DNA from: an uncultured bacterium
GTDB taxonomy: Bacteria; Chloroflexota; Anaerolineae; Aggregatilineales; Phototrophicaceae
Direction of reading: 5' to 3'
Length of the DNA: 11,616 nt
Assembly: GCA_963922445.1 (NCBI GenBank)
Contig: CAWUJQ010000120.1
Location: 1 to 11,616, forward strand
Part shown: positions 7,597-9,663 of the stretch, piece by piece
How the letters are laid out: every line of letters begins with the position of its first letter
Position numbering within the stretch: position 1 is the stretch's first letter
The notes under the pieces: generated by a model
What the model was told of the DNA's origin: nothing
Seen by the model: only the letters and a program-made list of their open reading frames with translations
The model's database searches: none
Translations under genes and position numbers: made by a program

Positions 7597-8133
7597 ATGC
7601 CTACCTTATCAACCGCACAGCGCCGCCTGCTTACACCGATTCTAATCCTGCTGGTGGCCACCACCGCCACGTTTACCGTTATTGGCTACGACGCCCACCA
7701 GCGCGGCAGCCGTCCGCCGGCCCGCAGTGCGGAAAGCTACTGGGAGCGGCCCGCGCCCCAACCCGCCTTCCTGAGAGATGTGCCCCGTGTGTATTACCCT
7801 GACCGAACGTGGTCACCGTTGGCGCAGTTCGAGACGTGGTCACCGTTGGCGCAGTTCGACAGCTCGGAGATCAAAGAGTTATTGGGGCTACCCAACTACA
7901 ACGGACTTAGCCTGGGTGACCATATCAATGTGTACCTTAACGGGCGGCAGGTATCGAGCTTGCAGGTGTGGTTTAACTTCGATTACAGCCTGACGTTTTT
8001 GGATCCGCATCGCCTGCCTTACCATGCTGGCCTCAACGTGGCCCGCATTGAGTTTGTAGACGTGTATAACCAGACGCGCTTTTACGAGTGGGCCTTCTGT
8101 GTGCCGGGTGGGGAGATTGACTGTGAAGCATAG
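7597..8133 (+). CDS. Paralog 1 of a four-gene tandem family: small N-terminally membrane-anchored protein with a conserved C-terminal WAFCVPGGEIDCE motif
   Basis: The start is ATG 7597 (MPTLS...), preceded by AAAGGGG. An in-frame ATG at 7591 abuts the SD and is a less likely start. The N-terminus has a basic stretch and hydrophobic helix (RRLLTPILILLVATTATFTVIG), followed by an RSAESYWERPAPQPAF box. It contains an in-frame 9-aa tandem duplication (TWSPLAQFE/TWSPLAQFD). It ends ...RFYEWAFCVPGGEIDCEA with stop TAG 8131-8133. Confidence 0.7.
   Translation: MPTLSTAQRRLLTPILILLVATTATFTVIGYDAHQRGSRPPARSAESYWERPAPQPAFLRDVPRVYYPDRTWSPLAQFETWSPLAQFDSSEIKELLGLPNYNGLSLGDHINVYLNGRQVSSLQVWFNFDYSLTFLDPHRLPYHAGLNVARIEFVDVYNQTRFYEWAFCVPGGEIDCEA
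7807..7860 (+). repeat. Near-perfect 27-bp tandem duplication (two copies, 26 of 27 bases identical) inside paralog 1
   Basis: acgtggtcaccgttggcgcagttcgag (7807-7833) and acgtggtcaccgttggcgcagttcgac (7834-7860) are read directly. The duplication is in-frame and encodes TWSPLAQFE then TWSPLAQFD. Confidence 0.95.
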
Positions 8134-8572
8134 ACGCCTGCTCACCCCCATTTTGATCCTGTTGGCCGCGACCACCGCCACGTTTTCGTTTATGTTCGTT
8201 CACTGGCAGTGGCACACAAGCTGCGTCCCCACGCGCAGCGCAGAGAGCCTGTGGCACACCCCGGACCCGGTTCGTGGCTACTTCAGCCCACGTCCTGTTT
8301 GTGACCCGGCCACGCTGCAAACGGAACTGGTGTTCACGCCGTATGAGGTTGTACAGGTGACAATCGATGGGCAGCGGTGGCGGGCGTGGGGTCGAGGCGT
8401 GTCCCACGCTGAGGGTGTCAGCATGCCGTACATCTACCTACACCGGACGCCTGAACCGGGGTTGCACACCGCCTGCGTCACTTATTTCGACTTCCTCAGT
8501 GACGAACTCCGACGGCATGAGTGGGCGTTTTGCGTCCCCGGAGGAGAGATTGACTGTGAAAAAGAAGGCTGA
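8123..8572 (+). CDS. Paralog 2 of the tandem family. Its start codon is embedded in the 3' end of paralog 1
   Basis: The likely start is GTG 8123 (VKHRRLLTPILILLAATTATF...). It is preceded by GGTGGGGAG, an SD sequence that forms part of paralog 1's VPGGE codons. The start overlaps the paralog-1 stop by 11 nt. In-frame GTG 8099, GTG 8108 and TTG 8117 are alternative starts. It carries the TRSAESLWHTPDP box and ends ...RRHEWAFCVPGGEIDCEKEG with stop 8570-8572. Confidence 0.6.
   Translation: MKHRRLLTPILILLAATTATFSFMFVHWQWHTSCVPTRSAESLWHTPDPVRGYFSPRPVCDPATLQTELVFTPYEVVQVTIDGQRWRAWGRGVSHAEGVSMPYIYLHRTPEPGLHTACVTYFDFLSDELRRHEWAFCVPGGEIDCEKEG
8520..8560 (+). repeat. 41-nt intergenic-junction element AGTGGGCGTTTTGCGTCCCCGGAGGAGAGATTGACTGTGAA, copy 1. 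An identical copy lies at 9055-9095, a diverged copy at 8087-8127 and a degenerate copy at 9617-9657
   Basis: Direct reading shows copies 1 and 2 are identical over 41 nt. The element simultaneously encodes the C-terminal WAFCVPGGEIDCE of the upstream gene, the GGAGG SD and the TTGACTGTG start region of the downstream gene. Confidence 0.9.
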
Positions 8573-9101
8573 GCGCCGCCCATCACGCCGGCTATCAAAT
8601 GCGGTGCTGCTGGTCTGCCTGACGGTTTTGATTTCGCTACTGGCCTGGACGTATGTGCCGCTCCTCACGTGCGACATGATTACGAGTGTAGGCCCGCTTG
8701 GGGCTACCCGATCCGCTGAGGATTTGTGGGGTGACCCTGCCCCGGAACCCGCGTTTATCGAATACACGTTGTCATTTTCGATAAACCACACGAACGTTAT
8801 CGTAGGAATCGACGGAGCCGAGGTAAGCGAGTTCGTAGCTGCGGGATGTGACATGGCGTTGACCATTAACAATCAACCTGTTGACACATTCGGGAACGTT
8901 GAAAGCTATCTGTCTAGCTCATGTGATTTCACGCAAGCTATCCCATGTCCGCCGAGCTACACAATGGTCGTCACCGTAGATTACCTGGAACCCGGTCTGC
9001 ACACGGCGGCAATCAACGTGGCTGGCACGGGTGACAGCGAGACGCGCTTTCATCAGTGGGCGTTTTGCGTCCCCGGAGGAGAGATTGACTGTGAAGCGTA
9101 A
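8556..9101 (+). CDS. Paralog 3 of the tandem family (Cys-rich variable domain). Its start is embedded in the 3' end of paralog 2
   Basis: The likely start is GTG 8556 (VKKKAERRPSRRLSNAVLLVCLTVLISLLAW...). It is preceded by CCGGAGGAGAG, a GGAGG SD that lies inside paralog 2's PGGE codons. The ORF track's upstream start at 8367 would overlap most of paralog 2 and is rejected. It carries the TRSAEDLWGDPAPEPAF box and ends ...RFHQWAFCVPGGEIDCEA with stop 9099-9101. Confidence 0.6.
   Translation: MKKKAERRPSRRLSNAVLLVCLTVLISLLAWTYVPLLTCDMITSVGPLGATRSAEDLWGDPAPEPAFIEYTLSFSINHTNVIVGIDGAEVSEFVAAGCDMALTINNQPVDTFGNVESYLSSSCDFTQAIPCPPSYTMVVTVDYLEPGLHTAAINVAGTGDSETRFHQWAFCVPGGEIDCEA
9055..9095 (+). repeat. 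41-nt junction element, copy 2 (identical to 8520-8560)
   Basis: Read directly from the sequence. It spans the paralog 3/4 junction. Confidence 0.9.
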
Positions 9102-9663
9102 ACAGGCGAGACTTAACCGGGCTGAAAGCATCGTGCTTGGTACATTGCTGTTGGCGATAATCGTTGCGGTCTTTCTAGCGATGGTGGGGCCATATGTTTG
9201 CAATGAGATACCACCTGCAATCGACAGCTCGAACCCATTACCGCCCGCGGAGTTGCTGTGGCGATACCCTGCCCCCAGACCCGATTTTATCTCTTACGAT
9301 CCAACACCCATTGTTTACGACTACAGAGTAACTGATTCTGGACGGTGTGTTCGTTATACGGGTGAGTCCCGCTTATTGTTTATCGACCAAATCGAACTCG
9401 GTCGCTTGCTTGGTGAAGGCGAATGGCCTCCAACAGATGCCCTGGACTTTTACGTAAACGGCAAGCGACTTGATCCCAATCAGTGGTACATCCTCCCCTG
9501 GCCCAGGGATGGCTACGTTTTGGCCGTGGATTCAGTTCAGGGGCCAGCGTTTCTACCCGGATATCACCTCGCACGCATCCAATTCGTTGATCAGTTTGAC
9601 CGCACCCACGTCTATCAGTGGGCGTTTTGCGTGCCGGGTGAGGGCATCACCTGCGAGCGTTAA
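9091..9663 (+). CDS. Paralog 4 of the tandem family (most divergent). Its start is embedded in the 3' end of paralog 3
   Basis: The likely start is GTG 9091 (VKRKQARLNRAESIVLGTLLLAIIVAVFLAMVG...), preceded by the same GGAGGAGAGATTGACT element. It carries a PPAELLWRYPAPRPDF box and a PGYHLARIQFVD box, the latter matching LPYHAGLNVARIEFVD in paralog 1. It ends ...HVYQWAFCVPGEGITCER with stop 9661-9663. Confidence 0.6.
   Translation: MKRKQARLNRAESIVLGTLLLAIIVAVFLAMVGPYVCNEIPPAIDSSNPLPPAELLWRYPAPRPDFISYDPTPIVYDYRVTDSGRCVRYTGESRLLFIDQIELGRLLGEGEWPPTDALDFYVNGKRLDPNQWYILPWPRDGYVLAVDSVQGPAFLPGYHLARIQFVDQFDRTHVYQWAFCVPGEGITCER

Follow-up and report, generated by a model that had tools for sequence, protein, structure and literature searches.

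The DNA analysed here (the window) is a stretch of 11,616 nucleotides (nt), positions 1 to 11,616 of the forward strand of contig CAWUJQ010000120.1, from an uncultured bacterium that belongs to the Chloroflexota as judged by the best matches of the neighbour proteins. Positions 7597-9663 are occupied by a tandem array of four co-directional open reading frames (ORFs) on the + strand. These are mutual paralogs with pairwise amino-acid identities of 27-44%, and at each of the three junctions between them (J1, J2 and J3) the end of one gene overlaps the beginning of the next. Paralog 1 (P1; 7597-8133, 178 amino acids) begins with an ATG, with an alternative ATG at 7591, has its own 5' untranslated region (UTR) with the Shine-Dalgarno (SD)-like sequence AAAGGGGA, and ends in ...YEWAFCVPGGEIDCEA before a TAG stop at 8131-8133. 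Paralog 2 (P2; 8123-8572, 149 amino acids; C-terminus ...HEWAFCVPGGEIDCEKEG, TGA stop at 8570-8572), paralog 3 (P3; 8556-9101, 181 amino acids; TAA stop at 9099-9101) and paralog 4 (P4; 9091-9663, 190 amino acids; TAA stop at 9661-9663) are each assigned a GTG start within the tail of the preceding gene, and P4, the terminal copy, ends FCVPGEGITCER. All four lie on the + strand and no terminator-like or promoter-like site was found between them, an arrangement that matches the definition of coupled pairs as co-directional neighbouring ORFs on one transcript. The hexamer TTGACT was considered as an internal -35 box and rejected, as it has no -10 partner and the resulting transcript would miss the start. 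In base composition, GC content is slightly lower over P3-P4 (8501-9500; 53-55% versus approximately 58-60%), and the glycine codon GGA is used far more in the array than in the flanking genes.

Every paralog consists of a short basic N-terminus (VKHR in P2, VKKK in P3 and VKRK in P4), a hydrophobic helix, a juxtamembrane motif SAE-x-LW-x-x-P-x-P-x-P-x-F and a beta-rich body of about 100 residues, and all four close with ...PGLH-x-A-x-I...W-A-F-C-V-P-G-x-x-I-x-C-E. The best explanation of the window is that it holds a four-gene operon for single-pass membrane proteins with a putative extracytoplasmic immunoglobulin-like (Ig-like) domain and a C-terminal two-cysteine loop (C-V-P-G-x-x-[IV]-x-C). 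The DNA that encodes the membrane helix is itself repeated between P1 and P2 (7624-7682 and 8135-8193, both on the + strand and 80% identical to one another). P1 additionally contains a perfect 26-nt direct repeat with a period of 27 nt (7807-7859), an in-frame tandem duplication of nine residues (TWSPLAQFE / TWSPLAQFD).

The junction elements are located at 8089-8133 (J1), 8520-8572 (J2) and 9055-9101 (J3) on the + strand. In the upstream frame all three encode W-A-F-C-V-P-G-G-E-I-D-C-E, followed at J1 by A and the stop, and in the downstream frame all three read L-T-V-K from the TTG and GTG codons. The SD motif is GGGGAG at J1 (8110-8115) and GGAGGAG at J2 (8540-8546) and J3 (9075-9081). The GTG starts fall at 8123, 8556 and 9091, with a TTG located 6 nt 5' of each (8117, 8550 and 9085). 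A sequence of 41 nt, AGTGGGCGTTTTGCGTCCCCGGAGGAGAGATTGACTGTGAA, is identical at 8520-8560 and 9055-9095, exactly as a first-pass annotation of the locus, made from the sequence alone, had reported; it occurs twice only and cannot be extended by a single base on either side, the surrounding sequences being unrelated. The DNA that J1 has in common with the other two is limited to GAGATTGACTGTGAA(GC), a core of 15-17 nt that is identical at all three junctions and lies at 8113-8129 in J1, the sole stretch there to match J2 and J3. Third bases of the core codons serve both frames: that of GAG completes the SD, that of TGT gives the middle base of GTG, and that of GAA gives the second base of the downstream lysine codon. 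The annotation had also described one shared junction sequence and an out-of-frame overlap at each junction. The encoded protein motif was recovered at all three, whereas the DNA quoted for it departs from the actual 5' half of J1, which shares the core only, and J2 reads GTGAAA and not GTGAAG. Similarly, the genes do overlap out of frame (by 11, 17 and 11 nt at J1, J2 and J3) and the stop coordinates are correct, and the spacing given as 7-13 nt has to be revised, as the first base of GTG lies 8, 14 and 8 nt from the first base of the upstream stop. The element that ends P4 (9617-9663, + strand) has a 5' half, AGTGGGCGTTTTGCGT, that is the same as in J2 and J3 and a 3' half, GCCGGGTGAGGGCATCACCTGCGAGCGTTAA, that has neither SD nor GTG, in keeping with the view that the last paralog's copy is degenerate at the DNA level.

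Several lines of evidence bear on where translation of P2, P3 and P4 begins. A gene caller chose these same GTGs on the source contig (L004, offset +49) and, independently, on a related metagenome-assembled genome (MAG) of a Chloroflexota bacterium, L001. The next in-frame start candidates 3' of each GTG sit inside the membrane helix, which begins within 5-15 residues of each downstream start, arguing against true starts at downstream codons outside the element. In-frame extensions 5' of the GTGs are arginine-rich, out-of-frame readings of the preceding gene. On a third contig, L003, the P2 ortholog stands alone and is forced to use an ATG, before which two in-frame stops leave no other possible start; this ATG is one residue away from the position of the P2 GTG (MNANRRLLTP versus VKHRRLLTP). 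The spacing between the end of GGAG and the GTG is 7 nt at J1 and 9 nt at J2 and J3, so at each junction an SD-like motif precedes, by 5-10 nt, a start codon with which the downstream ORF begins, as defines a dual-coding ribosome-binding site (RBS). Predicted pairing with the canonical anti-SD is -7.8 kcal/mol at J1 and -9.5 kcal/mol at both J2 and J3, in a range of -12.7 to +0.6 kcal/mol for other local genes, and only two of approximately 20 local genes, both with AAGGAGGG, pair more strongly. Within the 2-kb array, sense-strand occurrences of GGAGG and GGGGAG are confined to the three junctions, and neither GGAGGAG nor GGGGAG occurs in 12.5 kb of other coding sequence. We infer from these features of the sequence that the GTG is the start codon actually used, which bears out the proposal that each upstream tail holds the SD and GTG of the next paralog.

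Folding of the three junctions revealed no RNA structure beyond that of shuffled controls (z about 0), and the idea of a masked RBS that is opened by the upstream ribosome is consequently unsupported. The region spanning the P4 tail and stop (9600-9690) folds at -32.9 kcal/mol (z = -2.0), stabler than its shuffled controls, which the internal junctions are not. The absence of structure bears as well on the suggestion that the junctions are programmed frameshift or fusion sites that make multi-domain polyproteins, for which it could be said that no stop interrupts the downstream frame across the junction and that J2 contains the run GAAAAAG. However, a +1 shift would be required, the A-run, which neither J1 nor J3 has, is out of X_XXY_YYZ register in the upstream frame, and there is neither a shared slippery heptamer nor a stimulatory structure, the fold energies equalling those of shuffles. 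A fusion would moreover place a second membrane helix after an extracytoplasmic domain, and a canonical SD and start are present for every downstream ORF. With no in-register slippery sequence and no stimulatory structure, we rejected frameshifting as extremely improbable. We also rejected the array as an RNA element, a known defence system or a pilin system: no match was obtained when 7300-9900 was scanned against Rfam at E ≤ 1, there was no match above the curated threshold in Pfam, NCBIfam or PADLOC for any of the four paralogs, and the paralogs lack a class III signal peptide of the type IV pilin or archaellin-like kind (G at -1, E at +5).

In order to interpret the DNA identity at the junctions, a background of synonymous divergence is needed. 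At aligned identical residues outside the motif the paralogs use the same codon in only 77 of 216 cases (36%), and synonymous sites between paralogs are therefore saturated. Inside the element, P2 and P3 agree at 12 of 12 codons. The longest exact nucleotide matches between paralog pairs nearly all lie within the element, the sole exception being P1/P2, where the match ties with a 15-nt run in the membrane-helix-coding region. The identity of J2 and J3 covers the 5' half too, a part that has no role in initiation, and 16-19 nt of this 5' half are also identical in the terminal P4 element. The 41-nt identity is best read as the likely result of short-tract gene conversion. The comparison of J1 with J2/J3 is different in kind. 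All seven synonymous sites of A-F-C-V-P-G-G differ, none of the five in E-I-D-C-E does (the chance of identity at all five, estimated from local codon usage, is approximately 0.04), and the sequence 3' of GTGAA(G) is unrelated. Identity that is limited to 15-17 bases, with saturated sequence on both sides, would be better explained by constraint on the SD, spacer and start than by conversion. The annotation had asked for synonymous conservation inside and outside the element to be compared among the paralogs, and had left the cause as selection and/or gene conversion; the comparison bears out the higher conservation inside, and both halves of that hedge find support, the first in a core kept amid saturated synonymous divergence and the second in the identity of J2 and J3 and in a tract seen in L001.

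That tract lies in the membrane-helix-coding repeat. In L001, P1 and P2 both carry ATC-ACT-GCA and CTGCTGGTGGCC, whereas in the window P1 and P2 both carry ACC-ACC-GCC; the L001 pair thus has three common substitutions and a 26-nt run that are missing from the window pair, and P1-to-P2 gene conversion in L001 is directly visible. Conversion is demonstrably active in the array, and it could conceivably be argued that conversion or recent common descent, together with constraint on the Cys-loop protein, accounts for the whole of the element's identity, with selection for the initiation signal adding nothing. The extension of the J2/J3 identity, and of 16-19 nt of it into P4, over a 5' half that does not take part in initiation would fit such an explanation, as would a test of the core that reaches only p ~0.04. 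Nevertheless, a conversion tract needs flanking homology, and the core that J1 shares with J2/J3 has seven of seven synonymous differences on its 5' side and unrelated sequence on its 3' side. The SD motif is confined to the junctions, and the internal G-G-E-I-D-C as against the terminal G-[ED]-G-[IV]-T-C indicates that protein constraint alone does not fix G-G-E-I-D. We therefore regard the sufficiency of conversion and protein constraint as improbable. At J1 itself, window and L001 differ by two changes in the 5' half and none in the core, where approximately one would be expected, numbers too small to give a test of synonymous divergence (dS) any power.

The number of array genes differs between near-identical strains. 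The window carries four copies, and related contigs at approximately 95-97% identity carry two (L001, with flanks approximately 96.6% identical to the window) and one (L003), and P3 is missing from both L001 and L003. In L001 the order is P1, the same J1, and P2 with a tail ...WAFCVPGDGVTCTP-stop that runs into the 3' flank of P4. Along the single gene of L003, a P1-type 5' region is joined by a crossover in the membrane-helix repeat to the P2 body, and this by a crossover within TGGGCGTTCTGCGT to a P4 tail GEGITCER. The breakpoints are thus found in TGGGCGTTYTGCGT..CCGG and in the membrane-helix repeat: the P2/P4 deletion breakpoints of L001 and L003, which differ from one another, map to the terminal element (9617-9663), and the P1/P2 crossover of L003 maps to the membrane-helix-coding repeat at 7624-7682. 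The prediction that the repeats would be recombination hot spots and that copy number should be checked in related strains has in this way been answered by arrays of four, two and one copies with breakpoints in the element. Together with identity patches above background and strain-specific substitutions shared between paralogs, copy-number variation with breakpoints in repeats completes the set of features that identify gene conversion and unequal crossover. In none of the three terminal tails available (P4 of the window, L003 and L001) is there an SD or a GTG; their sequences are GEGITCER or GDGVTCTP, and the pattern G-x-G-[IV]-T-C and both cysteines are preserved. Because these tails drop the SD and GTG but keep the cysteines, the Cys-x7-Cys loop would appear to be demanded by the protein and the internal G-G-E-I-D not.

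All of the comparison sequences are contigs assembled from short-read metagenomes, and the L003 contig is only 1124 nt long and reads exactly as a P2 body plus a P4 tail, as would be seen if the differences in copy number were assembly collapses at the repeated element and not true deletions or duplications. However, the exact match between the P2 and P4 elements in the window is only 16 nt, below the usual assembly k-mers. L001 cannot be a window-like array that collapsed, since its terminal tail, CGACGGCGTTACTTGCACGCCC, is missing from the window. The breakpoints of L001 and L003 differ, and L003 has its own 5' UTR and has undergone another crossover, in the membrane-helix region of P1/P2. 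A simple repeat collapse is unlikely for these reasons (the 16-nt match, the L001 tail and the two crossovers that L003 needs), and we give assembly collapse little credence as the source of the 4/2/1 series.

When the window is compared with L001, evolution is seen to be faster in the array genes than in the genes around them: for P2 the nonsynonymous divergence (dN) is 0.13 and dN/dS is 0.5, compared with a dN/dS of 0.02-0.07 in flanking genes. A hypervariable patch in P2 (8375-8435 in the window, 8376-8425 in L001) reads RGVSHAEGVSMPYIYL in the former and RVYSTGRVGIYVYL in the latter, with small indels, and contributes to these P2 values. Among other features of the same strains, the 26-nt direct repeat of P1 is found in L001 too, and the region 5' of the first array gene (7550-7596 in the window, 7551-7597 in L001 and 33-79 in L003) is far more diverged than the flanks. 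A hexamer TAnAAT is kept in this position (TACAAT, TAGAAT, TAAAAT) and may be the -10 box of the operon.

Taken together, these observations suggest a mechanism in which the last 13 codons of each upstream gene would also hold the initiation region of the next gene, namely the SD, a 7-9 nt spacer and a GTG in the +1 frame. Purifying selection would act on the 15-17 nt core, which must serve the E-I-D-C-E residues as well as the end of the SD, the spacer, the start and the second codon. Short-tract conversion would have made J2 and J3 identical over 41 nt and would keep the 5' half identical in P4. Finally, crossover in the element or in the membrane-helix-coding region would shorten or lengthen the array and leave every gene with a working start, since the junction is part of the repeat unit. 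We consider this combination of dual-coding junctions, selection on the core, conversion and crossover-driven copy number to be probable as a whole, with considerable room for doubt.

Several points weigh against it. The TTG located 6 nt upstream may serve as an alternative start at J2 and J3, although at J1 no more than 1 nt separates it from the SD. The p value of approximately 0.04 for core conservation is weak because there are effectively two independent junction lineages, J1 versus J2=J3. An argument from the rare codon pair GGA-GGA is suggestive and not decisive, because GGA makes up 1% of glycine codons in the flanking genes but 6 of 39 in the array outside the element, so that the array itself is richer in GGA. 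Differences in copy number among metagenome contigs could in principle be assembly errors. The overlaps of -11, -17 and -11 nt fall outside the stop-to-start range of -8 to +10 nt that is treated as predictive of termination-reinitiation, longer overlaps being rare (Huber et al. 2023, PMC10666635), and in reporter work summarised in a review coupling declines with overlap length from -4 to -25 (PMC12548453).

These last points concern how far the starts depend upon upstream translation. We infer that initiation at the GTG is at least partly coupled, as a ribosome that terminates 8-14 nt downstream covers the SD and start, so that initiation is likely to depend to some extent on translation of the preceding gene. 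Beside coupling, the strong SD probably also allows independent initiation, which may dominate, because the overlaps exceed the predictive range, coupling declines with length and the SD is unmasked. Taken to its limit, this would mean an embedded RBS with no coupling, each paralog initiating independently and the overlap being a frozen by-product of the founding duplication with no stoichiometric role. In favour of this, the SDs pair strongly (-9.5 kcal/mol) and lie outside any structure that an upstream ribosome would have to open, overlaps of -11 and -17 lie beyond the efficient range of termination-reinitiation (PMC10666635, PMC12548453), and the existence of strains with one and two copies indicates that a fixed four-subunit stoichiometry is not essential. 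Nevertheless, some interplay is hard to avoid when the terminating ribosome physically covers the SD and start, and the comparable 14-nt overlap of psbD-psbC is largely coupled (PMC3326318). Entirely independent initiation therefore seems to us a serious if distinctly less likely possibility, and partial coupling the preferred reading.

The paralogs, each with an N-terminal membrane helix and a putative Ig-like sandwich, constitute an orphan family, and in a sequence-profile search of the PDB no match had an E-value under 0.16. When 5.8 billion clustered proteins and 1.84 billion representatives were searched by profile, close relatives were recovered on only four contigs, one of which is the source of the window. 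No further arrays were found in metagenome and genome scans with the paralog profile, and there were no family members in 72 loci fetched through the neighbouring Band_7 gene; the closest genome by this route (L036, 81% Band_7 identity) lacks synteny upstream. On the sequences covered, the family appears to be very narrowly distributed within the Chloroflexota. Five distant small homologs (P0010, P0011, P0013, P0014 and P0015), with E-values of only 1.9e-4 to 5.6e-4, resemble the array proteins in their N-terminal membrane helix, juxtamembrane SA-x-x-LW-x-x-P-x-P-x-P-x-F, putative Ig-like body and final strand PGLH-x-A-x-I...WAF. Unlike the array proteins, they end 2-21 residues past WAF[RK] without the C-V-P-G-G-E-I-D-C loop, and when arrays were looked for around each of them, all five proved to be single-copy genes in unrelated neighbourhoods. 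In locus L078 the small genes that adjoin P0010 proved unrelated. In L078 (1097-1810 and 4001-4552) P0010 is located a few genes 3' of a HEAT_2 protein, and in L001 a HEAT_2 protein (10316-11032) follows the array-adjacent Band_7 gene, which could be the remnant of a once common neighbourhood or a coincidence.

With regard to the flanks, positions 9762-11138 encode a 458-amino-acid protein with matches to Band_7/SPFH and to the major vault protein (MVP) shoulder, and weak matches to Vault_3 repeats. Homologs of this protein, 43-83% identical to it, occur widely in Chloroflexota, Herpetosiphon, Oscillatoria, Sericytochromatia and Cloacimonadota MAGs, and it belongs to a bacterial major-vault-protein-like family. 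Directly upstream of the array, and divergent from it, a conserved trio on the - strand (5323-7391) encodes an SCO1664-family protein (TIGR03843), a DUF3090 protein (TIGR03847) and an MSMEG_4193-family phosphomutase (TIGR03848).

What purpose the array might serve is a more speculative matter. One idea, which we put forward as unlikely though somewhat less so than the assembly and conversion-only explanations, is that of a contingency-type locus for variable surface proteins, in which the 5' membrane-helix DNA and the 3' Cys-loop/RBS DNA would act as recombination handles around fast-evolving Ig-like bodies (P2 dN/dS of 0.5). If this were so, the presence of the RBS and start in the 3' handle would leave the array that results from any crossover correctly expressed, whatever its length. 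As a corollary, sharing the same low expectation, the Cys-loop tail that is missing from the distant single-copy homologs may have arisen from read-through of a former intergenic RBS (overprinting) and acquired a protein role later. Independently of that idea, one short DNA segment would here have three roles, as a protein motif, as the translation-initiation region of the next gene and as a recombination substrate, and the strain variants amount to natural experiments in which terminal copies drop the SD and GTG while the cysteines stay. The observations are of use for the annotation of gene starts and in considering how a tandem array remains expressible as it gains and loses copies. Established knowledge of translation or recombination is left unchanged. 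The locus is an instance of two well-known phenomena, an RBS inside the upstream ORF of a same-strand overlap, and unequal crossover accompanied by concerted evolution among tandem copies; what is particular to it is that the repeat unit includes the junction.

The closest tested analog of the junctions is the 14-nt psbD-psbC overlap of cyanobacteria and chloroplasts, in which a GUG start and SD-like motif lie inside psbD and translation is largely coupled with approximately 20% independent initiation (PMC3326318). Like the array genes, psbD and psbC are co-directional, overlap by more than 8 nt, and have the GUG and SD-like motif within the 3' end of the upstream coding sequence. The psbD-psbC overlap is conserved across lineages and its coupling is experimental, whereas coupling in the array is predicted from sequence. 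Unlike the array genes, psbD and psbC encode unrelated subunits of one complex and not paralogs, and theirs is a single junction that has not been propagated; in addition, the psbC SD and start are sequestered by a hairpin, whereas no such structure is predicted at the array junctions. Similar to termination-reinitiation pairs with overlaps of -4, -1 and -8 (Huber et al. 2019, PMC6728339; Huber et al. 2023, PMC10666635; review PMC12548453), the array genes are on the same strand with the SD in the upstream ORF. The array junctions are in the phase of the -8 class (-8, -11, -14, -17), and at 11 and 17 nt their overlaps exceed the enriched classes, so that a lower efficiency would be expected of the array junctions.

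Concerted evolution and unequal crossover are known from tandem arrays of bacterial paralogs. The present array is like these in its patches of identity above the synonymous background, its strain-specific substitutions shared between paralogs, and its copy-number breakpoints within conserved patches. It is unlike them in that its main conserved patch appears to double as an inter-genic expression signal, such that recombinants would automatically keep working starts.

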